Notes under the pieces: generated by a model
Seen by the model: only the letters and a program-made list of their open reading frames with translations
Database searches by the model: none
What the model was told of the DNA's origin: nothing
NCBI GenBank assembly: GCA_964514975.1
Contig: CAZESS010000028.1
Span: 1 to 19,436, forward strand
From: an uncultured Thermoplasmatales archaeon
Lineage (GTDB): Archaea > Thermoplasmatota > E2 > UBA202 > DSCA01
Reading direction: 5' to 3'
Length of the DNA: 19,436 bases
In this document: piece by piece, positions 1-16,498 of the stretch
Numbering within the stretch: the first letter of the stretch is position 1
Layout of the letters: every line of letters begins with the position of its first letter
Program-made: the position numbers and the translations under genes

Positions 1-3367
<3,367 letters not shown>

Positions 3368-3379
3368 CCGGTGCTGCAG

Positions 3380-3394
3380 AAAAACGTTCTTATA
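3380..3394 (+). promoter_or_regulatory. Putative BRE/TATA promoter of the larA-like gene
   Basis: AAAAACG-TTCTTATA ending about 21 nt before ATG 3416. No SD, so geometry fits a leaderless transcript. Confidence 0.5.
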
Positions 3395-3415
3395 GCCAGC
3401 CCGGCATACAAACCC

Positions 3416-4669
3416 ATGAAGGTCGACCTGCCCTATGGAAAAGGCTCGCTTGAGGCGGACATTCCCGACGGCAACCTCATAGACGTCGTGTATCCCAACG
3501 AGCTGGAGCCAGAAAGGCCGCCCGCCGAATACGTCAGGCATGCCCTGGGACATCCAATGGGCACACGGACCCTGAGCCAGCTGGCCGAGGCGGGCATGAC
3601 CGCGGCCATCGCCGTCGACGACAACACCCGTCCCTGTCCGACCTGGGAGATGCTGCCCCATGTCGTGGCGGAGCTCACCAGGCAGGGCGTGGACATGGAC
3701 GACATCACCGTCATCTTCGCGACGGGCACCCACCGCCCCGTCACCCATGAGGAGGCCAGGGAGCTGCTCGGCGCCGACTACGCCGACAGGCTCACCTACA
3801 CCAGCAACCGCTGCAAGCAGGACGACTTCACCTCGGTGGGAACCACCTCCCGCGGTACGCCGGTCCACGTCAACGACGCCTTTCTCGAGGCAGATCTCCA
3901 GATCCTGCTCGGCGACGTCGAAATACATTATTTTGCGGGCTACGGCGGCGGCCGGAAGAGCATCCTCCCCGGCATGTGCAGCTACGAGACCATCCAGGAC
4001 AACTACACCACCAACTTTTTCGATGTCAATTCAAGGCCGGGCAAGCTCGACGGCAACCCCATGTACGAAAACATGACCGAGGCCGCCCGCCTCACCCAGC
4101 CGGACTTCTGCCTCAACGTCGTCCAGAACCCACGGCATGAGCTCGTGGGCGCCTACGCCGGCGACTTCGACCTCGTGCTCCGCAAAGGAGCCGCCGACAT
4201 CGACCGCATGTTCAAGGTCGAGGTGCCCGAGCAGGCGGACGTGGTCGTCACCGCCGCCGACGGCGCACCCCACGACGTCAACCTCTACCAGGCATACAAG
4301 GCCATCCATCTCGCGCTCAACGTCGTCAAACCCGGCGGCGCCATCGTCCTCGCCGCCCGGTGCCCGGACGGCCACGGGTCGCAGCCCTACCATGACTGGA
4401 TGAAACGATATGACACCCGCGAGGAAATGCAGGAGCAACTCATGGAGGAGTTCGTGCCCGGCGGCCACAAGGCCTACTACCATATCAAGGCGCTGGAGCA
4501 GGCCGACTTTTACATCGTCTCAGACATGGACCACGACATGCTCCGCGACGTGTTCCGGATGCAGGTCTACAATGACATCAACGAGGCACTGCGGCAAGCA
4601 TTCGCCGACCAGGGAGACGATGCCTCCGTGCTTGCCATCCCCCGGGGCACGACCACGCTCCCCGATTAG
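3416..4669 (+). CDS. larA: LarA-family nickel-pincer (NPN)-dependent 2-hydroxyacid racemase/epimerase (DUF2088)
   Basis: Motifs DDNTRP, ATGTHR, HYFAGYGGGRKSILPG, NLYQAYKA and CPDGHG. Start MKVDLPYG is typical of the family. Substrate unknown. Confidence 0.85.
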   Translation: MKVDLPYGKGSLEADIPDGNLIDVVYPNELEPERPPAEYVRHALGHPMGTRTLSQLAEAGMTAAIAVDDNTRPCPTWEMLPHVVAELTRQGVDMDDITVIFATGTHRPVTHEEARELLGADYADRLTYTSNRCKQDDFTSVGTTSRGTPVHVNDAFLEADLQILLGDVEIHYFAGYGGGRKSILPGMCSYETIQDNYTTNFFDVNSRPGKLDGNPMYENMTEAARLTQPDFCLNVVQNPRHELVGAYAGDFDLVLRKGAADIDRMFKVEVPEQADVVVTAADGAPHDVNLYQAYKAIHLALNVVKPGGAIVLAARCPDGHGSQPYHDWMKRYDTREEMQEQLMEEFVPGGHKAYYHIKALEQADFYIVSDMDHDMLRDVFRMQVYNDINEALRQAFADQGDDASVLAIPRGTTTLPD

Positions 4670-5223: not shown

Positions 5224-7485
5224 TTACGGGGCGAAGCTGGCCGTCCATTCGGGGCGCGCCGGCGGACTGTCGAGCATGTCCATCCAGCTCTCATCGGTGA
5301 GCCTCGCAGCGACGGGCTGCTTGAACTCATAGTAGCTAAACACCGGCCCGGCACCGGCCATCACGGTGCCATCGGGCAGCATATATGCGACGATGACAAG
5401 GTCGGCGTAGCCGACCGCCTCCTCGAGACACTGGCCGGTGTTGCCATCGGTGTGCACGTCGGCCACCATTGGCAGGCGGCGTCCCTCCTCGTTGACGCCG
5501 TCCATCGTCCGGTTGAGCGAACGAACGAACGAGCCAAGGAACTGCTCATCCGCGCTGTCAAACAGGGTGCCCTCCAGCTCCTTCGCTGCCAGCTCAAACA
5601 GCCGGTCGAGCATCCCGTGCAGCGCGTCGAGCCGCTCGCTGCCGTTATCGTCGAGCACGCCAAAAGAGGCGAGACCCTGCCGGGTCATGTTCACCAGCGA
5701 CCGAAGCCGCATGTACAGCCGGGGCACCGGTTCAACATAGCCGGGCGCCTCCATAACCCCCGTCAGCACCGGGGTTGTGCTCTGCTTCGCATACAGGATG
5801 GTGTCATGCCGGAGCTGCGTCCACGAGGCCAGCGCTGCATTGAGCTGCTTGTCCCGCCATGCCTCCGTGGCCATAAACGAGGGGTAGCCCTCGCCGTAGC
5901 CGTCCAGCAGCGGCCGCAGCGCATACAGCCAGCTCCAGTACAGGTTGCGGTTCCACCCGGTAACGTTGAAGCCGTCGAACATGTCGCGGAGCATCCCGAG
6001 CTGCCCGTCGTAGCTGCCGTTCACGCCCGCATAGTCGGTATCGCCGTCATCGCGCAAAATGCTCTCCGCTCTGTCCGAGCCCAGCACCGCCATCACGTCC
6101 AGCCCGCGGGGGAAACACCGCGCCGGCCCGCCCATCGTCATCTCCACGGTGAACGGCCACATGCTGCTGTTATCCTCAATGCTGCCGTTGTACATGCCCA
6201 CCGCCGGGGAGACCAATTGCTGGAACATGTAGCTGTCCGGCACAAAGCGCTGCCCCATGAACCGGAGGCCGGCCGTCTTCGCGAGCACCTCGTCGAGCCG
6301 CTCAGCGGTAAACGGCGGCGCTATGCTACACTGGCCGGTTCCGCCATAGATGCGCGGGCCCGGCAACTGCGCCAGATGCCCCTTGAGCTCCTGGAGCCGT
6401 GTGACGTTGACCAGCAATGACGCGTTGAAGCTGCTGCCATAGGTCTCGTTGAGGCAGCCCAGATAGTCATGGGGCGTCAAATCATCGGCGGTGCCCACGA
6501 AAAACGAGGTAACGGCGTAGATGCGCTGCCAGACAGCCCATCCCGTCTCGCTACCTATCGATACCTGCGGCAATCCGGTGGCGATGAGCGCTGCCTGCAC
6601 CGTCGCAACCGTCGCATCTCGCTCCGACACCAGATAGGGCTGCGCCGGGCCATGCGGGGTGCCGCCCCTGAGCAAAAACGCCATCCTGCCGTACCACATC
6701 AGCGCGCGGAAATAGCGCTGCAGCGCAGGCGAGGACGTGTAATGTCCCCGGGGCACATACTGCGAGTAGTCCTCCCGGTAGCCAAAAATCTCGCTGTCAT
6801 GATAGCCGTCATGGGCAGCGATGTGCTCGAGCTCTCCGTCGACCATGTCCGCCACGCTCGCCGGTATCCCCCCGGCATCTCTGTCGAGCAGCCGGACGGC
6901 GACGGTGAAAAAGGCCAGGTTGCGCCGCGCCGCCTCCCGCAGCGTGGCGTTGCCAAAGCGTTCGTATTGCGCTCTCGCATGCTCGGCCATCGCCAGGCTG
7001 AGATTGGCGATGTCGTCATAGAACACCTGCTCCTCTATCCCTTTGAGCAACTGGCTGAACTGCACATGGTAGAGATGCAGCAGGGTGTCGCTCGTCACAA
7101 AAATCGGCAATCCCATCCGCTGCACCCGGCGATAGGAAACGCTGATGTCGCCCACGGCGCCATCGTCCACCACGACGAAGCCATTGCGCCGGAGCAACCC
7201 ACGCTGCTCTCCCGTGAGATGAAATGCCCCCTCGACCGTCTCGAGGTTTTCGATGTCAGCGAGGTCGAGCGGCAGCTCATAGGAGGGAGCGGAGGCGTTG
7301 ATGGTCGCACCCTCATTGCGGTACATGCTCGCCATCGCGGTCTGCGGGTCATCGCCCGCCGCAGCAGACATGGAGGGAATGCTGATAACCTGCACGTCTC
7401 GCTCCGCGGTCAGACAGCCGCTCAGCGCGCTGGCCATGAAGACCGCGACGATAAGCACCACCATTGGTTTTTTCATGTCTCTCAT
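5224..7485 (-). CDS. DUF3160 family secreted lipoprotein
   Basis: Signal peptide MKKPMVVLIVAVFMASA followed by lipobox LSGC. Family motifs DYSQYVPRGHYT, LRHDTILYAKQS, GYVEPVP, ADVHT, GPVFSYYEF and RLTDESW. Start could be 7485 or 7476. Confidence 0.85.
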   Translation of the reverse strand: MRDMKKPMVVLIVAVFMASALSGCLTAERDVQVISIPSMSAAAGDDPQTAMASMYRNEGATINASAPSYELPLDLADIENLETVEGAFHLTGEQRGLLRRNGFVVVDDGAVGDISVSYRRVQRMGLPIFVTSDTLLHLYHVQFSQLLKGIEEQVFYDDIANLSLAMAEHARAQYERFGNATLREAARRNLAFFTVAVRLLDRDAGGIPASVADMVDGELEHIAAHDGYHDSEIFGYREDYSQYVPRGHYTSSPALQRYFRALMWYGRMAFLLRGGTPHGPAQPYLVSERDATVATVQAALIATGLPQVSIGSETGWAVWQRIYAVTSFFVGTADDLTPHDYLGCLNETYGSSFNASLLVNVTRLQELKGHLAQLPGPRIYGGTGQCSIAPPFTAERLDEVLAKTAGLRFMGQRFVPDSYMFQQLVSPAVGMYNGSIEDNSSMWPFTVEMTMGGPARCFPRGLDVMAVLGSDRAESILRDDGDTDYAGVNGSYDGQLGMLRDMFDGFNVTGWNRNLYWSWLYALRPLLDGYGEGYPSFMATEAWRDKQLNAALASWTQLRHDTILYAKQSTTPVLTGVMEAPGYVEPVPRLYMRLRSLVNMTRQGLASFGVLDDNGSERLDALHGMLDRLFELAAKELEGTLFDSADEQFLGSFVRSLNRTMDGVNEEGRRLPMVADVHTDGNTGQCLEEAVGYADLVIVAYMLPDGTVMAGAGPVFSYYEFKQPVAARLTDESWMDMLDSPPARPEWTASFAP

Positions 7486-8131: not shown

Positions 8132-8866
8132 ATGTTCAGGGTAACGATAAAAAGCGATTTTCTCCGGACCGTGGTCGACGCCACCGCCATCCTGGTGGAC
8201 GAGGTCAAGCTGCATTTTACGCCCGACGAGATGTACGCGCGCGCGGTTGACCCCGCCCATGTCGGCATGATCGATTTCAAGCTCACCAGGGACGCCTTCG
8301 AGGAATACGAGGTCGAGGAGGAACACGAGGTCGCCGTCGACCTGGAAAAGGTGAAGGGCATGCTCAAGCTCCCCGCCACCGAGGACGTCATCTGCCTGGA
8401 GCAGGAGGAAGAAGGACGCCTCGTCGTCCGCATCGGCAACCTCACCCGGCATATGACGCTGCTGGACACCGCCGAGATGAGCGACGCCAAGATACCGAGC
8501 CTCGACCTTGATACGGAGGTCGTCGTCAGCACCGACGAGGTCTACCGCGGCGTCCGCGCGTCGGAGGCCGTCTCCGACCACATTGCCCTTGCCGCATCCC
8601 CCGACGAGTTCGAGCTGTCGGCAGAGGGCGACACCGACACCGTCAACCTGGTCATCCCGAAAAGCCAGCTCGTGTCCCTTGAATGCGAGGAACAGGTGCG
8701 CAGCCTGTTCTCCCTCGACTACTTCAGCGACATGATAAAATCCGCGAAAAGCGACCAGGTAACCTTCAAGCTGGGCACCGACTACCCGGTCAAAATGGCC
8801 TTCAAGGTCGCCGACGGCAACGGCGACATCTCCTACCTGCTGGCCCCCCGGATAGAGTCCGAATAA
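8132..8866 (+). CDS. pcn: DNA polymerase sliding clamp PCNA
   Basis: 244 aa, acidic. RAVDPAHVGMI, FSLDYFSDMIK and C-terminal YLLAPRIE are characteristic of archaeal PCNA. Confidence 0.96.
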   Translation: MFRVTIKSDFLRTVVDATAILVDEVKLHFTPDEMYARAVDPAHVGMIDFKLTRDAFEEYEVEEEHEVAVDLEKVKGMLKLPATEDVICLEQEEEGRLVVRIGNLTRHMTLLDTAEMSDAKIPSLDLDTEVVVSTDEVYRGVRASEAVSDHIALAASPDEFELSAEGDTDTVNLVIPKSQLVSLECEEQVRSLFSLDYFSDMIKSAKSDQVTFKLGTDYPVKMAFKVADGNGDISYLLAPRIESE

Positions 8867-8914: not shown

Positions 8915-8972
8915 GCCACGATGATGAAGAACGCCAGCCGACGATGACGAAACGATGGGCGGGCTGAGTGGC
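8915..8972 (+). ncRNA. Archaeal box C/D 2'-O-methylation guide sRNA
   Basis: Terminal stem GCCAC (8915-8919)/GTGGC (8968-8972). Box C ATGATGA (8921-8927), D' CCGA (8938-8941), C' ATGACGA (8944-8950), box D CTGA (8964-8967). Guides of 10 and 13 nt, 58 nt in total. Intergenic, with own TATA upstream and a T-rich tract downstream. Confidence 0.88.
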
Positions 8973-8977
8973 TACCC

Positions 8978-8985
8978 TTTTATAT
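8978..8985 (+). promoter_or_regulatory. TATA box of the six-gene operon (may double as sRNA U-tract terminator)
   Basis: TTTTATAT ending about 21 nt before ATG 9007. No SD. Confidence 0.6.
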
Positions 8986-9006
8986 TTCCCGCCGTTGTCA
9001 CATCAC

Positions 9007-10434
9007 ATGGGATACGACACCGTCTACAGCGCCGGTGCCGGCCTCGACGACGACGTCATCAAGCGGCTCCATGTCATCATCCCGGATGGCGTGTCAACCC
9101 GGGAGGCCGACCGCGTCGTCTACGGCAAGGACTACTGGCCGATATCGCTGCGCTGGCTGCTCGACGGCCGGCTGCCCGCGCTCCCCGACGCCGTCATCTG
9201 GCCCGAAACCGCCGAGCAAATCGCCGGGGTCATGCGGCTGGCCAACAGGCATGGCTTCCCCGTGATACCCTACGGCGAGGGTTCCGGCGTCGTCGGCGGC
9301 GCCGTACCTGTGCAGGGCGGCGTGATGCTCGACATGCGCCGGATGCACGACATCCCGTCCATCGACGACCAGGGGCTCATGGCCAGGGTGCAGACCGGCA
9401 TCAACGGCATGACGCTGGAACGGGAGCTCAACCGCGCCGGCTACACCCTCGGGCACATCCCCCAGTCGCTGCACTGCTCGAGTCTGGGCGGCTGGATTGC
9501 CTGCCGCGCCGCCGGACAGTTCTCCACCAAATACGGCAAGATAGAGGACATGCTCATCGCGCTCGAGGCGGTGCTCCCCGACGGTACCGTCATCCGCTCC
9601 CGACCGGTGCCCCGCACCTCCACGGGCCCACGGGTCGAGCGGCTCATGCTCGGCAGCGAGGGCACCCTGGGCGTCGTCACCGAGGCAACGCTCAAGATAT
9701 GGCCATATCCGGAGCGCCGCGCATTGCACGCCTACACCTTCGACGACATCGCCGATGCATTGGAGGCGACCAGGCATATCATGCGGAAAAACGTCTACCC
9801 GGCGGTGATGCGCATCTACGACGAACACGAAACCCTGCGCCACTTCAACGTCAAGCATCGATGCATGCTCATCCTGATAATGGAGGGCGACCCTGACCTC
9901 CTCGACCTCGAGGAAGCCATCGCAGCCAAAATGTGCACACGCTTCAACGGCAATGACACGGGTACGGCGCCGGCGGAGCGATGGCTGGAGACCCGGTTCA
10001 CGGTTAAGGAGTCATCGGAGTTCACCCCCCGCGGCTTCATCTTCGACACCGTCGAGATATCCGCGGGATGGCGCAACGCATTGGAGACCTACCACGCAGT
10101 CATCGAGGCCATGCAGCAGATACCGGGCGTCGTCGTCGCCTCCGGGCATGCCTCCCATTTTTATCCGCAGGGCGTCTGCTTCTATTTCACCTTCGGCGGC
10201 CTGCCCCGCAAACAGACGCCCTACGAGTTCTACCGGGCCGTGTGGGATACCATCATGGCAGCCTGCCTCGAGCACGAGGGCTCCATCAGCCACCATCACG
10301 GCATCGGCATCATCAGGCAGCGCTGGCTCCCGGACGAGCTCGACGGCCGCCTGCACATGCTCCGCCGGATAAAGCACGCGCTCGACCCCAACCGGGTGAT
10401 GAACCCGGGTAAAATGGGAGGTGACGATGGCTAG
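9007..10434 (+). CDS. FAD-linked oxidase (VAO/PCMH family), alkyl-dihydroxyacetonephosphate synthase (AGPS)-like
   Basis: PYGEGSGVVGG, GHIPQSLHCSSLGGWIACRAAG..STKYGKIED, PRTSTGP..GSEGTLGVVTEAT, HFYPQGVCFYFTF, SISHHHGIG and LDPNRVMNPGK. The HHH triad and PRxSTGP match the AGPS branch; GlcD/D-LDH typically have GEHG. Confidence 0.8.
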   Translation: MGYDTVYSAGAGLDDDVIKRLHVIIPDGVSTREADRVVYGKDYWPISLRWLLDGRLPALPDAVIWPETAEQIAGVMRLANRHGFPVIPYGEGSGVVGGAVPVQGGVMLDMRRMHDIPSIDDQGLMARVQTGINGMTLERELNRAGYTLGHIPQSLHCSSLGGWIACRAAGQFSTKYGKIEDMLIALEAVLPDGTVIRSRPVPRTSTGPRVERLMLGSEGTLGVVTEATLKIWPYPERRALHAYTFDDIADALEATRHIMRKNVYPAVMRIYDEHETLRHFNVKHRCMLILIMEGDPDLLDLEEAIAAKMCTRFNGNDTGTAPAERWLETRFTVKESSEFTPRGFIFDTVEISAGWRNALETYHAVIEAMQQIPGVVVASGHASHFYPQGVCFYFTFGGLPRKQTPYEFYRAVWDTIMAACLEHEGSISHHHGIGIIRQRWLPDELDGRLHMLRRIKHALDPNRVMNPGKMGGDDG

Positions 10435-11611
10435 CATGCGGAAAAAATACGGCTGGGTCATGGACGCGATGTCCAACGCCGGCATGGCCACAAAGGCGGC
10501 CGCATTGAAACAGTTCCTCCGGGGCAAAAAACAGTACCTGCCACAAAAAAACACCAGCGCCGACCTCGACGAGGTCATCAAATGCGCGCTCTGCCCCAAC
10601 ATGTGCAAGTTCGACTGCCCCGTGCTCGCCGCGGCGCAAAACGACGCCACGTCGCCATCGGGCAAGGCACGCGTCGCCTATTTCCTGGAAACCGACCGCC
10701 TTGATACAGATGACGCGGTCGAGCTGATGTACGCCTGCTGCAACTGCGACGCCTGCCAGCAATGGTGCCCATTTGATTTCTCCGCCGGGGACATCCTCCG
10801 CGGCGTCCGCGCCGACCTCGCCGGGCAGCAGCGGGCGCCACCGGCGGCCATGGACCTGCACCGTCGCCTCCAGGAACAGCACGTGCTCCACGACCGACAG
10901 GTGCAGCCCACCGGTGCAACGCAGGGCGACGTCCTCTACTTCATGGGATGCGAGGTCGCCGGACGGCACCCCGCCATCGCCGTCGCCATGCAGGAGCTCC
11001 TCGACGACGGATACACGATGCTCCCCGAGGAATGGTGCTGCGGCGCCCCGCTCTACACCCTCGGGTTCGACGACACCTTCAAAGAGTTCGCCCGGCACAA
11101 CGCCGCTGCTATTCAAAAAAGCGGCTGCAGCACCCTGGTGTGCAGCTGCCCGACCTGCACCCACATGTTCCGGGATATCTATCCATCCATCGGCGTCGCC
11201 ATCGAGGCAGAAGTGCAGCACAGCACCGAGTACCTGCTCCGCCGCGCCAACGAGGGAGCACTCCCGCTCGCCCCGCTCGACCGTACGGCCGTCTACCATG
11301 ACCCCTGCACGCTCGCCCGCACGCTCGAGATAACAGCGGCACCACGGGAGCTCCTCCGCCGCGCTGGCGTAACCATCCGCGAGGCATACTACGCCGGCGC
11401 GGACACGGATTGCTGCGGACGCGGCGGCTCCCTGGGCACGATGCAGCCCGACCTCGCCGCGGCGATAACACGACGGCGCATCCAGGAGCTCCACCGGGCC
11501 AGCGAGACGATCATAACCGCCTGCCCCACCTGCAAAAGCGCCTTCACGGGCGAGAGCGCCCATGTGCAGGACATCACCGAGATACTCCGCGAGGCACGGG
11601 AGCGCATATGA
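10427..11611 (+). CDS. Fe-S oxidoreductase subunit with 2x[4Fe-4S] and two CCG domains (GlpC/GlcF/HdrD-like)
   Basis: CALCPNMCKFDCP, CCNCDACQQWCP, FMGC..WCCG..CPTC and YHDPC..DCCGRGG..TACPTC. SD GGAGGTGA at 10417-10424. Start 10427 or 10436. Confidence 0.85.
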   Translation: MASMRKKYGWVMDAMSNAGMATKAAALKQFLRGKKQYLPQKNTSADLDEVIKCALCPNMCKFDCPVLAAAQNDATSPSGKARVAYFLETDRLDTDDAVELMYACCNCDACQQWCPFDFSAGDILRGVRADLAGQQRAPPAAMDLHRRLQEQHVLHDRQVQPTGATQGDVLYFMGCEVAGRHPAIAVAMQELLDDGYTMLPEEWCCGAPLYTLGFDDTFKEFARHNAAAIQKSGCSTLVCSCPTCTHMFRDIYPSIGVAIEAEVQHSTEYLLRRANEGALPLAPLDRTAVYHDPCTLARTLEITAAPRELLRRAGVTIREAYYAGADTDCCGRGGSLGTMQPDLAAAITRRRIQELHRASETIITACPTCKSAFTGESAHVQDITEILREARERI

Positions 11612-13362
11612 ACGACCGGGCGCTCAGGAAAAAGGTCATGCGGGCGATCCGCCATATCCGGCCTGCCATAGAGGTGTCGGTCGACGACGGCATCATCTCA
11701 CTCGACGGCAACGCATCCTCATACAACGAATACCTCGAGGCAGGCAGAGCCGCGGGGCGCATCGCCGGGGTTGACGGCGTCGTCAACGACCTTTCATATC
11801 CCGGGAAACCCGAGCCATGCACGCCCGAGGGAAACGGCGAGACCGTCGCAACCGCGGACGTGGTCATCGTCGGCGGTGGGGTCACCGGCTGTATGATCGC
11901 CCGGGAGCTCTCCCGCTACGACCTCGACATCATCCTGGTTGAAAAAGAACCCGACGTCGCCTGTGGGGCCACCAAGGCCAACAACGCCATGGTGCACACG
12001 GGCATCGGCGAACCGACGGGCACACTCAAGCAGCAGCTCTGCATAGAGGGCCACCGGATGTACCCGCGTCTCTGCGAGGAGCTCGACGTGCCCTACCATC
12101 AATGCGGCATGTGGATCGTGCTCACCCCTGCATCCTTTACCGGCCTGCCCGTTCCCGCCTGGCTCGCCACCCGGATTGGCAGACACCTGGTTCCCCAGGT
12201 GCTCCTGCGGCGGGCAAAAAAGCTCGGGCTGCCCATGGAACAGGTGAGCGTCGAGGAAGTGAAGCGCAGGGAGCCCCACATCACCGATGACGTCACCGCC
12301 GCCGTTTTTTCGCCGACCTACGGCGTCACCTGTCCCTACCGGCTGACCATCGCCCTGGCCGAAAACGCCGCTGACAACGGCGTAGACATCATGCTCAACA
12401 CAGCGGTGACCGACATCGACATTGGCAACGGCCATGTCACCGGCGTCGTCACCACCAACGGGCGCATCAAAACCTCCTGGATAATCAATGCAGCAGGGCT
12501 CTATGCCGACCGGGTCGCCGAGATGGCCGGCGCCCGCGAATACACCATCCATCCAAAGCGGGGCGCCATCGCGCTGTTCGACAGCCGCCACAATGGCTAC
12601 GTCAACCACTGCATGAGCCTCCTGCGCTTTCCCCGCCGGGAGCACTACAAGGGAGGCGGCGTCATGATCACGGCGGACGGAAACATCCAGTGGGGGCCCA
12701 CCATGATGGAGACCCCCGATCGAGATGACACCGCCGTCACCGCCGACGACCTCGAAACGATATTTGGGAGATACCGGCCGTTGCTCCCCGACTTTCCAAC
12801 CCGGGACGTCATCACCTATTTCGCCGGATTGCGTGCATGCACGTTCACCGAGGACTTCGTCATCCGGCCCGCCCGCCACGTTGAAGGCTTCATCCACGTC
12901 GCCGGCATCCAGTCCCCCGGGCTGGCCGCCGCCCCCGCCGTCGCTGCACGAGCCATCAAAATGCTCAGAGAGCAGGGGCTTGCCCTGCCCGAAAAACCCG
13001 ATTTCGAGCCGCGCCGCCGTCGCCCGCCAGCATTCCACGAGAGCAGCAGCGAGGAACGACAGTGCCGCATCGAACGTGACAGCCGACATGGCCACGTGGT
13101 CTGCCGCTGCGAGCATGTCACCGAGGGCGACGTCATCGCAGCCATCCACCGGCCGGTTCCCGCCCGCACGGTCGACGCGGTCAAGCGGCGGACGCGCGCC
13201 GGGATGGGACGATGCCAGGGCGGCTTCTGCCTTCCAAGGATAGCGGCCATTATTGCCCGGGAGCACGACATCCCCCTCGAAGAAGTGAACAAAAACGGCG
13301 ACGGCTCCTATCTCTTCATAGGGCGGGCGAAAAGCCTGCTGGAGGCCGACCATGCAGGCTGA
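11608..13362 (+). CDS. glpA: FAD-dependent glycerol-3-phosphate dehydrogenase-like protein (GlpA/LhgO family) with N-terminal BON domain and C-terminal BFD-like [2Fe-2S] domain
   Basis: VIVGGGVTG, ATKANNAMVHTG, INAAGLYAD, GIQSPGL and CRCEHVTEG..RTRAGMGRCQGGFC. The first ~62 aa fit BON (IEVSVDDGIISLDG..AGVDGVVNDL). ATGA overlap with the upstream stop. Confidence 0.8.
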   Translation: MNDRALRKKVMRAIRHIRPAIEVSVDDGIISLDGNASSYNEYLEAGRAAGRIAGVDGVVNDLSYPGKPEPCTPEGNGETVATADVVIVGGGVTGCMIARELSRYDLDIILVEKEPDVACGATKANNAMVHTGIGEPTGTLKQQLCIEGHRMYPRLCEELDVPYHQCGMWIVLTPASFTGLPVPAWLATRIGRHLVPQVLLRRAKKLGLPMEQVSVEEVKRREPHITDDVTAAVFSPTYGVTCPYRLTIALAENAADNGVDIMLNTAVTDIDIGNGHVTGVVTTNGRIKTSWIINAAGLYADRVAEMAGAREYTIHPKRGAIALFDSRHNGYVNHCMSLLRFPRREHYKGGGVMITADGNIQWGPTMMETPDRDDTAVTADDLETIFGRYRPLLPDFPTRDVITYFAGLRACTFTEDFVIRPARHVEGFIHVAGIQSPGLAAAPAVAARAIKMLREQGLALPEKPDFEPRRRRPPAFHESSSEERQCRIERDSRHGHVVCRCEHVTEGDVIAAIHRPVPARTVDAVKRRTRAGMGRCQGGFCLPRIAAIIAREHDIPLEEVNKNGDGSYLFIGRAKSLLEADHAG

Positions 13363-14587
13363 CGTCGCGGTCATCGGCGGCGGCCCCGCCGGCCTCGCAG
13401 CCGCCCTGGAAGCAGCGGAGCACGCCGACACCGTTGTCCTGCTGGAGCGAGACAGAGAGCTCGGCGGCATCCTGCCCCAGTGCATCCACCACGGCTTCGG
13501 GAACTTCATCTTCGGCGAAAGGTGGACCGGGCCGGAATACGCGCAGCATTACATCGACCGCGTCCACGCATCAGCCATCGACGTGATGACCGACACCATG
13601 GTGCTTGACATAGCTACTGACAGGACGATCACCGCGGTCAACCCCGCCAGGGGCTTATTCACCGTCAAAGCCCAGAGCATCGTGCTCGCTATGGGCTGCC
13701 GGGAGCGCACCCGGAGTCAGATACGGCTCCCCGGGCCACGGCCTGCCGGCATCTACACCGCCGGGACGGCGCAGCGCCTCATCAACATCGAGGGCATGAT
13801 GCCCGGCCGCCGCGCGGTCATCGTCGGCTCCGGCGACGTCGGCCTCATCATGGCACGCCGCCTCACCTGGGAGGGCGCCACCGTTGAGGGCGTCTACGAG
13901 ATCATGCCCCATTCCGGCGGCCTGACACGCAACATTGTCCAGTGCCTCCACGACCATGACATCCCCCTGCACCTTGGCCACACCGTCACCGACATCGCTG
14001 GCACCAGGCGGGTGGAGGCCGTCACCGTCACCCGGGTCGACGGTGACATGCAGCCCCTGTCCGGCACCGAGCGTAAAATTCTCTGCGACACGCTCATCCT
14101 CGCCGTCGGCCTCATCCCCGAAAACGAGCTCTCCAGAGATGCAGGCATCAGCCTCGACCCGACAACGGGCGGCCCGGTCGTCGACCAGCACATGGAAACC
14201 ACGCAGCCCGGCATCTATGCCTGCGGCAACGTCGTCCACGTCCACGACGTCGTCGACGACGTCACCATCGCGGCGCAGACCGCCGGACGACATGCTGCCC
14301 GGGCAGCCGGCGACCGGCAGCCCGGCCATGCCGCACCGGTGCAGCCGGGCCGGAACGTCAGCTACGTCGTCCCCCAGCGCATCACCGCCGCCGACACCGA
14401 CGTCCGCTTCTACCTCCGGGTGCAACGGGAGCAGCACGACGCCGTGGTCACGGTTTACGGGGACGGCGACCTGCTCCACGAGCAGCGGGAGCGGGTCGTC
14501 CGGCCGCCCGAGATGGTCACGCTGACGATGCCCGCCGAAAAACTCCAGCATATCAAAAACATCAATGTCGAGGTGCACGATGGATAA
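13352..14587 (+). CDS. NAD(P)/FAD-dependent oxidoreductase (pyridine nucleotide-disulphide family), usual GlpA partner
   Basis: VIGGGPAGLAAA, GGILPQCIHHGFG, LAMGCRER, VGSGDVGLIMARR and GIYACGNVVHVHD. SD GGAGG. 11-nt overlap with the glpA-like gene. Confidence 0.88.
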   Translation: MQADVAVIGGGPAGLAAALEAAEHADTVVLLERDRELGGILPQCIHHGFGNFIFGERWTGPEYAQHYIDRVHASAIDVMTDTMVLDIATDRTITAVNPARGLFTVKAQSIVLAMGCRERTRSQIRLPGPRPAGIYTAGTAQRLINIEGMMPGRRAVIVGSGDVGLIMARRLTWEGATVEGVYEIMPHSGGLTRNIVQCLHDHDIPLHLGHTVTDIAGTRRVEAVTVTRVDGDMQPLSGTERKILCDTLILAVGLIPENELSRDAGISLDPTTGGPVVDQHMETTQPGIYACGNVVHVHDVVDDVTIAAQTAGRHAARAAGDRQPGHAAPVQPGRNVSYVVPQRITAADTDVRFYLRVQREQHDAVVTVYGDGDLLHEQRERVVRPPEMVTLTMPAEKLQHIKNINVEVHDG

Positions 14588-14936
14588 CGTCATCTGTATC
14601 GAATGCCCCCTGGGCTGCGAAATATCCGTCGAGCAGCGCAACGGCGAGCTATTCATCACGGGCAACGCCTGCCCCCGCGGCGAACGCTACGCCATGCAGG
14701 AGGCCACCGATTCCCGGCGGGTGCTCACCACCACCGTGTTCATCCAGGGCGCCATGCATCCCATGCTGCCCGTGAAAAGCGCCCGGCCGCTGCCCAAAGA
14801 CCGGATAGACGAATGTCTCCAAACGCTTGCGACCGTGTCCGTGACAGCGCCGGTGCAGTGCGGCGACAGCGTATGCAGCGACATCTGCGGCACCGGCATC
14901 GACATCGTCGCAACCCGGACCATGGAGGCACCATGA
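14580..14936 (+). CDS. DUF1667 family small Cys-rich (CxxCPxGC) metal/Fe-S protein
   Basis: CIECPLGC..GNACPRGERYA..RVLTTTV..LPVKS..GIDIVATR. SD GAGGTG. Overlaps both neighbours. Confidence 0.88.
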   Translation: MDNVICIECPLGCEISVEQRNGELFITGNACPRGERYAMQEATDSRRVLTTTVFIQGAMHPMLPVKSARPLPKDRIDECLQTLATVSVTAPVQCGDSVCSDICGTGIDIVATRTMEAP

Positions 14937-16498
14937 AACACGTCATGGCCATCGACGCCGGCACCACGGGCATCCGTGCCATCATCTTCAACCAGGAAAG
15001 CCAGGCGGTATCGCATGCCTACGAGACCATCACGCTGCGGCAGCCCCATCCGGGCTGGAGCGAGCAGGATCCCCGGGAGGTCTGGGAGACATGCCGGCGG
15101 GTCATGCACACCGCGCTCACCGACAGCGACCTGGCAGCAAGGGACATCGAAACCATCGGCGTGGCCACGCTCCGCTCGACCAACCTGCTGTGGCGCAGCG
15201 ACGGAACCCCGCTTTCCAATGTCATCACCTGGCATGACACCCGGACCGCCGGGCTATGCCGGGAGATGGACGGCCAAGCCACGATACGGGCCGCCCGGGG
15301 GCTGGGCCACGCCGCCAGAGCGCTCTCCCGCGTCTGGCCGGGGCTGCGCCGCGGCCGCACCGCCGGCCGGCTCATCACCGCCTCCCATCTCTCGTTCACG
15401 CCCGCATCGGCGCTGGCGCACACGGCATGGCTGCTCGACAACGTCAACGATGCGCGGTATCTCGCCCGGCGGGATGAGCTGCGCTGCGGCACCATGGACA
15501 CCTGGCTCCTCTGGAATCTCACCGCCGGCGAGACCTATGCGACGGACACGTCGAACGCAAGCGCCACCGGCATGTACGACCCCTACCGGCTGCAGTGGAA
15601 CTCGCTGTTCCTGGACACCTTCGACATCCCCGCGGCGGTGCTGCCCGAGGTCCGGGACACCGCCGACAGGTACGGCCATATCGACAGGGATATCCTGGGG
15701 CGGGAGATACCCATCACCGGGGTGGTCGCCGACCAGCAGGCGGCGCTCTTCGGCGAGGCATGCTTCAAGCCGGGCGAGGTGAAATGCACCAGCGGCACGG
15801 GAACCTTCATCGACATGAACGTCGGCGACTGCCCGGCTGCGTCGCTGCACCGGCTGGTGCCCATGATCGCCTGGAGCATCAATGGCAGGGCTACCTACAT
15901 GCTGGAGGGCATGATAAACACGAGCGGTGCAGCCGTCCAATGGCTCAGGGACAACCTGGGTGTCATCGACCATGTCGACCAGTCATGCCAGATGGCGCAG
16001 TGCGTCGACGACGCTGGAGACATCTATTTTGTGCCGGCCTTCACGGGTCTCTCCTCACCCTACTGGGACCCGCATGCATGCGGCGTCGTCGTGGGATTGC
16101 ATCGCTCCACGCAAAAGGAGCACATCGTCCGCGCCGTCCTGGAGGGCATCGTCTACCGGTGCCGGGACATCATGCTCTCGATGGAACGGGACGCCGGCCT
16201 GCCCGTCCGCTCCATCACGGCCGACGGTGGTGCCTCAAAAAACGATTTCCTCCTCCAGTTCATGGCCGACATGCTCGACGTCCGGGTTGAACGACCGGCG
16301 ATGCTCGACGGCACCGCGCTCGGCGCCGCCCACCTGGCAGGGCTGGCGGCCGACATATGGCAGCCTGACGAGCTCAGACTTCGTCATAGCACAGAGCAGG
16401 TCTTCGAGCCCTCAATGCCCCCGGAACGGCGGGAGCGCCTCTACCGTGGATGGCGCCGCGCCGTCGAAAAATCGTTCCGGTGGCGTCATTCGGCGTAG
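14933..16498 (+). CDS. FGGY-family glycerol kinase-like protein, GK5-like subtype
   Basis: AIDAGTTGIR, GWSEQDP, GTMDTWL, TDTSNASATG, ADQQAALFG, GTGTF, FVPAFTGL..PYWD and ADGGAS. SD GGAGG (14924-14928) and ATGA overlap. Extra basic/hydrophobic segment after WHDTR. Confidence 0.88.
   Translation: MKHVMAIDAGTTGIRAIIFNQESQAVSHAYETITLRQPHPGWSEQDPREVWETCRRVMHTALTDSDLAARDIETIGVATLRSTNLLWRSDGTPLSNVITWHDTRTAGLCREMDGQATIRAARGLGHAARALSRVWPGLRRGRTAGRLITASHLSFTPASALAHTAWLLDNVNDARYLARRDELRCGTMDTWLLWNLTAGETYATDTSNASATGMYDPYRLQWNSLFLDTFDIPAAVLPEVRDTADRYGHIDRDILGREIPITGVVADQQAALFGEACFKPGEVKCTSGTGTFIDMNVGDCPAASLHRLVPMIAWSINGRATYMLEGMINTSGAAVQWLRDNLGVIDHVDQSCQMAQCVDDAGDIYFVPAFTGLSSPYWDPHACGVVVGLHRSTQKEHIVRAVLEGIVYRCRDIMLSMERDAGLPVRSITADGGASKNDFLLQFMADMLDVRVERPAMLDGTALGAAHLAGLAADIWQPDELRLRHSTEQVFEPSMPPERRERLYRGWRRAVEKSFRWRHSA

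Follow-up and report, generated by a model that had tools for sequence, protein, structure and literature searches.

A GK5-type FGGY kinase encoded in a conserved archaeal operon with AGPS/YgcU-like and FngABC-like genes

We analyzed a stretch of 19,436 nucleotides (nt) from an uncultured Thermoplasmatales archaeon (contig CAZESS010000028.1; this whole stretch is hereafter called the window), which carries a six-gene operon ending in a gene for an FGGY-family kinase (Table 1). A preliminary description of this DNA, made from the sequence alone, had proposed that the kinase resembles animal glycerol kinase 5 (GK5) rather than GlpK. Our sequence comparisons assign the protein to the GK5 subfamily as a prokaryotic member, encoded in a conserved and uncharacterized operon. 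NCBI and UniRef already list close homologs as 'glycerol kinase 5'; the resemblance to GK5 is known to the databases, and the operon context is the new part.

The operon and its kinase gene

The six genes overlap one another by 4 to 23 nt, and the kinase gene is the last of them. We placed the start of the kinase at the ATG at position 14933, which overlaps the stop codon of the preceding gene as ATGA, instead of following a longer open reading frame with an ATG further upstream. The first gene encodes a flavoprotein that is GlcD-like by Pfam and NCBIfam, and the second, which overlaps it by 14 nt, encodes an iron-sulfur protein for which all NCBIfam matches fell below their cut-offs. The ATG of the third, FngA-like gene again overlaps the upstream stop codon as ATGA. 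Together with the two genes that follow, it resembles the FngABC type of glycerol-3-phosphate oxidoreductase defined in PMC13689815, as the window encodes side by side an FngA with DAO and BFD domains, an FAD/NAD-type FngB and a DUF1667 protein in the place of FngC (Pfam). Of the FngABC sets surveyed in that work, 32% lie away from glycerol genes (PMC13689815).

Among proteins of known structure, the best relatives of the first operon protein are alkyl-dihydroxyacetone phosphate (alkyl-DHAP) synthases (2uuu, 224 bits; 4bby, 201 bits), with D-lactate dehydrogenase at 138 bits. In alignments to 4bby and 2uuu it conserves the equivalents of Arg419 and Tyr578, which we take to be active-site residues of AGPS, and of His615-617 (guinea-pig AGPS numbering). 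His616 and His617 are named as active-site residues of AGPS in an excerpt of a docking paper (PMC13019191). Many homologs of this protein are annotated as alkyl-DHAP synthase by JGI.

Table 1. Features of the operon, of the kinase and of the surrounding window
Feature	Position	Strand	Remarks
AGPS/YgcU-like FAD flavoprotein, first operon gene	8968..10434	+	Pfam FAD_binding_4 and FAD-oxidase_C
CCG / 4Fe-4S iron-sulfur protein (GlpC/LdhH/TfrB-like)	10421..11611	+	Pfam CCG 1.6e-26, Fer4_8
FngA/GlpA-like FAD dehydrogenase with BFD [2Fe-2S] and N-terminal BON domains	11608..13362	+	DAO 8.2e-69, Fer2_BFD 1.3e-15, BON 1.4e-7
BON domain of the FngA-like protein	11608-11800	+	Putative lipid- or membrane-binding module
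FngB-like pyridine-nucleotide-disulphide-type flavoprotein	13352..14587	+	Pfam Pyr_redox_2 5.6e-36
FngC-like DUF1667 protein	14565..14936	+	Pfam DUF1667 6.6e-30
GK5-type FGGY kinase	14933..16498	+	521 aa; Pfam FGGY_N 4.8e-49, FGGY_C 1.3e-40
TLRSTN, opposite GlpK NQRETT	15167..15184	+	Residues 79-84; Arg83 kept, Glu84 to Ser
Basic helical insertion and remodelled Tyr135 segment	15275..15412	+	Residues 115-160
Asp-Gln-Gln	15731..15739	+	Equivalents of E. coli Asp245 (catalytic base) and Gln246-247
gyrB (partial) and gyrA	1-3367		Upstream of the operon
LarA-family nickel-pincer racemase homolog	3371-4669	+	Highest-scoring model LarAH6 (malate racemase), 438 bits; cut-off 500
Large DUF3160 protein	5224-7485	-	753 aa; Pfam 5e-191; without NCBIfam match
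PCNA	8132-8866		Directly before the operon; PCNA adjoins the cassette in locus L116 too

Glycerol-site residues, the insertion and kinship with animal GK5

The kinase matches both FGGY domains of Pfam, and its AlphaFold2 model, which was built on a 108-sequence alignment and has a mean predicted local distance difference test score (pLDDT) of 93.3, shows the GlpK fold, with TM-scores of 0.84-0.90 against GlpK structures outside the insertion described below. Identity to GlpKs of solved structure is about 40%. The protein passes the cut-off of the NCBIfam GlpK subfamily model NF000756 (528.4 bits; cut-off 498) and falls below that of the GlpK equivalog model TIGR01311 (527 bits; cut-off 590.35), and each NCBIfam match to it is split into two parts with an unaligned stretch between them.

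Residues were compared in alignments to the GlpKs of Staphylococcus aureus and Escherichia coli and to solved GlpKs (HMMER, MAFFT; E. coli numbering). Asp10, Arg83, Trp103, Asp245-Gln-Gln and Phe270 are kept, in agreement with the preliminary description as far as it had listed them (Asp10, Arg83 and the Asp-Gln-Gln motif), and across 108 family members little or no variation is seen in Asp10, Arg83, Asp245 and the GTG motifs. The reported replacement of Glu84 by Ser, in the TLRSTN that stands for NQRETT, is seen in the alignments to both the S. aureus and the E. coli protein. Tyr135 is also lost, as had been stated; the alignments place Pro157-Ala158-Ser159 opposite Pro-Tyr-Phe, making this a change from Tyr to Ala, and the earlier pairing of FTPA with PYFS was one residue out of register. 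Arg188, which was absent from the earlier list of losses, is replaced by Ala.

Glu84 and Tyr135 hold the end of glycerol that lies away from the phosphorylated hydroxyl. In the excerpted text of Zhang et al. 2011 (PMC3245297), the specificity of GlpK is attributed to Arg83, Glu84, Tyr135, Asp245 and Phe270, and the same glycerol contacts are described in a paper on the Plasmodium GK. By this signature the window kinase reads R-S-A-D-F against R-E-Y-D-F in GlpK, keeping three of the five residues. The preliminary description had held that such losses open the substrate site: two of the five published specificity residues are indeed gone, and the further step, that this makes room for a C1-linked chain, may also be true.

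These changes were placed in the context of 143 sequences, comprising 128 of the 150 best cluster representatives (the other 22 had lengths outside 470-620 amino acids and were dropped), 11 named close homologs and 4 references. None of the 79 canonical representatives deviates at Glu84, Tyr135 or Arg188, and every one of the 35 insertion-bearing sequences has other residues in place of Glu84 and Arg188; this comparison indicates that the residue losses and the insertion of the kinase are not due to chance. Tyr135 is retained in at most a few of the insertion-bearing sequences. GK5-type and canonical proteins are told apart by positions E84, T128, G129, Y135, F136, K140, R188 and T289, six of which fall at E84 or within the 128-140 segment, near the glycerol site.

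The segment equivalent to E. coli residues 110-135 is 51 amino acids long in the kinase, compared with 23-28 in nearly all canonical GlpKs, and the insertion amounts to 26 residues. An Arg-rich amphipathic segment had been recognized here before, and it corresponds to residues 117-156, which align to no solved GlpK; eight of the 31 residues from 116 to 146 are Arg. AlphaFold2 predicts helices at residues 116-134, 136-140 and 142-150 (pLDDT 79-89), with hydrophobic moments of 0.63 and 0.74 for the two longer helices and 0.84 for the five-residue helix. Among 91 homologs with a long insertion the segment has a mean net charge of +7.9, and the richness in Arg is the GC-rich form that this genome gives to a conserved basic character. 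One further GK5-type protein, annotated by JGI as 'putative glycerol kinase 5' (P0123, 596 amino acids), has an acidic, low-complexity N-terminal extension of about 75 residues.

For GK5 itself we used sequences from a beetle (Leptinotarsa, XP_023029275), a tunicate (Styela, XP_039262763), a spider (Nephila, GFT92162) and a sandfly (Phlebotomus, XP_059621178), with the ichthyosporean Chromosphaera as a further eukaryotic relative. The named GK5 sequences carry an insertion at the same site, in a segment of 41 amino acids; they have Ala, Gly or Cys in place of Glu84, lack Tyr135 and Arg188, and have the motif NASxTGxYDP[FY] in common with the window kinase. The window kinase likewise combines an insertion in the 110-135 region with replacement of Glu84, Tyr135 and Arg188. 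Of the segments that the preliminary description had listed as shared with GK5, the insertion site and NASxTGxYDP[FY] hold up, whereas LPxVRDT and GTGTFxDxNxG correspond only loosely.

Phylogenetic trees also placed the kinase with GK5. All insertion-bearing sequences fell into one 36-row clade in a FastTree analysis of 101 rows (support 99). Under LG+C20, IQ-TREE recovered from 61 rows a 34-row clade in which the window group joins a largely eukaryotic group of 16 rows; the clade as a whole has a Shimodaira-Hasegawa-like approximate likelihood ratio (SH-aLRT) support of 95, and its eukaryotic part has 99. A 34-row LG+G4 tree united the window clade with eukaryotic GK5 at an SH-aLRT of 96.5. 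In all three trees this group is separate from E. coli GlpK and from the genome's own canonical GlpK. For the LG+C20 and LG+G4 trees, the insertion columns (including position 135) and columns 84 and 188 had been removed. When the window clade was forced to join canonical GlpK in the 34-row LG+G4 analysis, the log-likelihood was 30.4 lower, with an approximately unbiased (AU) test p of 0.082, so that this placement was not rejected. With this proviso, the trees bear out the proposal of a GK5-like rather than a GlpK-like protein. Two GlpK-like sequences, one of them from Eubacterium limosum (P0125 and P0128), lack the insertion and have Glu84 replaced by Ala, Tyr135 by Val and Arg188 by Val; their group is the sister of the GK5-type clade in FastTree and is unresolved in IQ-TREE, and it may represent further non-glycerol kinases.

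Distribution of the cassette

The full cassette is present in six of the nine fetched Thermoplasmatota loci; a seventh has FngABC and the kinase only, and the remaining two, one of them from Actinomycetota, have other neighbors. The BON domain on FngA recurs in five related loci. A close kinase homolog (at least 49% identity) occurs in 11 of 201 genomes of the phylum, and all 11 also encode an ortholog of the AGPS-like protein. This ortholog is found in 13 of the 201 genomes, the next match dropping to 33% identity, and orthologs of the BON-bearing FngA likewise occur in 13. In G110, one of the two extra genomes, the whole cassette is present with a kinase that is only 31% identical and that retains Ser84, Ala188 and a basic 51-residue insert. 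The sampled genomes are related and non-independent, so these co-occurrence counts overstate the case.

A profile scan of genome contigs with the clade alignment yielded 80 loci, of which one was GK5-type and nearly all others canonical GlpK. The genome of the window also holds, on contig C12 (L125:5937-10537, minus strand), an operon of canonical GlpK (with NQRET and AYFS), FngA, FngB and FngC (DUF1667), in which FngA lacks the BON domain and GlpK lacks the insertion. The cassette is therefore a diverged set parallel to this canonical one. We found no MIP/GlpF channel in this 98.9%-complete genome. The window carries, in addition, an archaeal-type leucyl-tRNA synthetase, and the nearest homologs are labeled Thermoplasmatota.

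Outside the archaea, GK5-type kinases were found in 18 of 301 sampled Actinomycetota genomes, and a kinase of the 41-residue type with Gly84 in 25 of 301 Spirochaetota genomes. The neighbors of the Actinomycetota kinase are varied and include acyl-CoA dehydrogenases, some of them AidB-like, a FasR-like regulator, RNase D and proteases; in L146, L148 and L150 the kinase gene is immediately followed, in the same orientation, by one for an AidB-like acyl-CoA dehydrogenase, and FasR-like TetR regulators lie near it in L145 and L147. The spirochaete kinase (L182-L189; GC content 38-47%, genomes of 3.7-4.8 Mb) sits between a baeRF12/Host_attach gene and a gene for an alpha/beta hydrolase of the Hydrolase_4 type, the latter one small gene beyond the kinase, an arrangement seen in all three annotated loci.

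Candidate substrates and comparison with known systems

From the fold, the residue changes, the clade and the conserved operon we infer a substrate, an order of steps and an association with the membrane. We give a probability of roughly 0.4 to the reading, drawn from sequence and predicted structure, that the kinase phosphorylates a 1-O-substituted glycerol. A catalytically competent GK5-subfamily kinase would then catalyze the first step of a six-gene pathway associated with the membrane. Its Arg83 and Asp245 are predicted to position the hydroxyl that receives the phosphate and to activate it, with Trp103 and Phe270 as an apolar clamp and a retained ATP site. The grip on the distal end of glycerol would have been lost with Glu84 and Tyr135, and with Arg188, whose loss accompanies theirs, and the basic amphipathic helical insertion would have been gained beside them. 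Taken together, a retained catalytic end, a lost distal grip and an adjacent insertion would make a glycerol substituted on its distal oxygen the likeliest substrate, for example a glycerol with one alkyl or acyl chain, or a related compound derived from lipids. Phosphorylation would yield a 1-O-substituted glycerol 3-phosphate, which the BON-fused FngABC type would oxidize to a 1-O-substituted DHAP. The AGPS-like product of the first gene would take substrates of this class.

The lost distal grip, a dehydrogenase that would make a DHAP derivative and an AGPS-like enzyme whose relatives act on 1-O-substituted DHAP are consistent with a 1-O-substituted glycerol. The TIGR01311 score below its cut-off, the failure to find a MIP/GlpF channel and the 32% of FngABC sets away from glycerol genes also count in favor of this reading. 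The kinase insertion and the dehydrogenase BON domain are both absent from the canonical paralogs, and a BON domain together with a basic amphipathic insertion suggests chemistry at the membrane. As the preliminary description had suggested it could, the operon context hints at the substrate, through an AGPS/YgcU-like flavoprotein and a BON-fused FngABC type.

An extension of this reading, which we consider fairly unlikely as a whole, is that the cassette serves an oxygen-independent salvage or cleavage of glyceryl ether or ester lipids and that animal GK5, by homology, acts on 1-O-substituted glycerols and not on glycerol. At the membrane, a glycerol with one alkyl or acyl chain would be phosphorylated by the kinase, the BON-FngABC enzyme would generate the alkyl- or acyl-DHAP, and the AGPS-like flavoenzyme would free the chain through a reversal of AGPS chemistry.

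Several observations weigh against a 1-O-substituted glycerol as substrate or against its lipid version. The lost residues vary within the family (S, A, N or T at position 84; A, Q, V or N at 135), and from these sequences no new specific contact is evident. In five genomes that are 94-99% complete (G135, G147, G100, G090 and G060), the cassette provides the sole GlpK-family kinase and the sole FngA found, and it could be their glycerol route. Among the 18 Actinomycetota genomes that encode a GK5-type kinase, not one AGPS-like match reaches E 1e-70, a level attained in 52 other Actinomycetota genomes (8 unpublished ones included); this rejects a universal link between GK5 and AGPS. Neither the 18 Actinomycetota nor the 25 spirochaete kinase genes are adjacent to FngABC, and the AGPS-like/FngABC context is confined to archaea among the sampled lineages. 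The AGPS-like protein is itself ambiguous. E. coli YgcU (32% identity) is as near to it as true AGPS and holds the same five residues, so that the motif is not diagnostic of AGPS activity. It also lacks the N-terminal 130-175 residues of the solved AGPS proteins, the alignments beginning at residue 129 of 2uuu or 177 of 4bby and at residues 45-64 of the window protein, and its iron-sulfur partner suggests redox chemistry. E. coli is not known to produce ether lipids. Animal GK5 is described in databases as a glycerol kinase. Finally, an excerpt of a preprint (10.1101/2025.09.10.675409) assigns the animal 1-O-alkylglycerol kinase to ACAD10 and reports that ACAD10 co-occurs with AGPS. Animals therefore do not need GK5 for the phosphorylation of alkylglycerol, and the idea that GK5 is their missing alkylglycerol kinase is weakened.

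Some of the same evidence would fit an ordinary ATP:glycerol 3-phosphotransferase, an isozyme whose changes affect affinity, regulation or quaternary structure and which feeds glycerol 3-phosphate to the adjacent FngABC type. We doubt this explanation but take it seriously. The GlpK fold, the identity to solved GlpKs, the NF000756 score and the retention of Arg83, Trp103, Asp245 and Phe270 all speak for it, as does the place of the gene directly after FngABC, which is that of the kinase in characterized glycerol operons (PMC13689815), and the five genomes named above have no other GlpK-family kinase that we found. Against this, all three residues invariant in 79 of 79 canonical proteins are lost, two of them published specificity determinants, and the TIGR01311 score is below its cut-off. 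The window genome, moreover, already has a canonical GlpK-FngABC operon, and the AGPS-like and CCG genes of the cassette, like its BON domain, would be superfluous to a glycerol route.

We regard as unlikely that the substrate is another soluble small molecule resembling glycerol (a diol, a C4 polyol, or an ether or glycoside of glycerol) with no lipid involved, whose phosphate ester would be oxidized by the FngABC paralog before the AGPS/YgcU-like and CCG proteins carry out a second redox step. Many FngABC sets do lie beside sugar or polyol kinases, with eight sets in E. limosum (PMC13689815), and the nearest insertion-free group includes the E. limosum 'GlpK' with Ala at position 84 and Val at 135. 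The AGPS-like protein with its iron-sulfur partner also resembles YgcU, whose cluster holds an FGGY kinase, Etf-like proteins and transporters. However, Pfam shows no gene for a transporter, an isomerase or an aldolase in the window operon, the additions to FngA and to the kinase (a BON domain and a basic amphipathic segment) speak for the membrane, and in other phyla the kinase has as neighbors not sugar genes but genes for acyl-CoA dehydrogenases, a FasR-like regulator and alpha/beta hydrolases.

Lastly, a non-catalytic or regulatory GlpK-like protein, as might be imagined from published descriptions of animal GK5 as a regulator of SREBP processing and cholesterol synthesis (among them PMC6385389), is very improbable given a gene translationally coupled to metabolic enzymes and catalytic motifs (Asp10, Arg83, Asp245 and GTG) that are invariant or nearly so in 108 members.

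Animal GK5 has been linked to the control of skin lipids and cholesterol, to hair loss and to drug resistance. Gk5 is called 'minimally characterized' in an excerpt of a 2026 preprint that places it within a mouse lipid quantitative trait locus hotspot. Literature searches on GK5, DUF1667, alkylglycerol kinase and AGPS in archaea turned up no paper that connects kinases of the GK5 type with AGPS-like or FngABC genes; one paper remarks as a surprise on Agps homologs in archaeal metagenome-assembled genomes. The operon context of the prokaryotic GK5-subfamily members thus supplies a concrete and cheap substrate hypothesis for GK5, testable with soluble archaeal proteins. Alkylglycerol monooxygenase needs oxygen. 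It is the only enzyme named for the breakdown of alkylglycerols in the excerpted part of one review (PMC7911779). Were the lipid reading true, the operon would be a first oxygen-free means of recycling glyceryl ether lipids in sediments; should it be wrong, what is left is a naturally occurring GlpK variant that functions although two 'invariant' glycerol-binding residues are missing.

Of the known systems, canonical GlpK (E. coli b3926, T. kodakarensis 6k78 and the genome's own copy on contig C12) has in common with the window kinase an identity of 40-45%, the fold, the ATP site, Asp245, Arg83, Trp103 and Phe270, and both kinases adjoin FngABC. In contrast to it, the window kinase lacks Glu84, Tyr135 and Arg188, carries the 26-residue insertion and scores below the TIGR01311 cut-off. 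The kinase domain of ACAD10 catalyzes the reaction proposed for the window kinase but has an unrelated, protein-kinase-like fold. AGPS (2uuu, 4bby) is the best solved relative of the first operon protein, with Arg419, Tyr578 and the His-His-His stretch in common, yet the N-terminal domain of AGPS is missing from the operon protein, which has an iron-sulfur partner and is equally near to the uncharacterized YgcU. In E. coli K-12, the ygc cluster (L159, 2892657-2903374) encodes YgcU, the FGGY kinase YgcE, Etf-like and ferredoxin-like proteins, a short-chain dehydrogenase/reductase and two transporters, and is a possible distant analog of the archaeal cassette; YgcE was rejected as a GK5-type kinase at 22% identity.

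The FngABC systems of PMC13689815 resemble the window set in combining DAO and BFD, Pyr_redox_2 and DUF1667 proteins beside a kinase, and the window set differs from them in the BON domain on FngA and in the CCG protein and AGPS-like flavoprotein encoded upstream. Metazoan GK5 is like the window kinase in its insertion site, in the loss of Glu84, Tyr135 and Arg188, in NASxTGxYDP[FY] and in belonging to the same clade in three trees. It differs in that identity is only 32-36% and in that the insertion of the window kinase is 10 residues longer and much more basic (net charge +7.9, compared with +4.7), and, unlike metazoan GK5, the window kinase is encoded by a prokaryotic gene within an operon.

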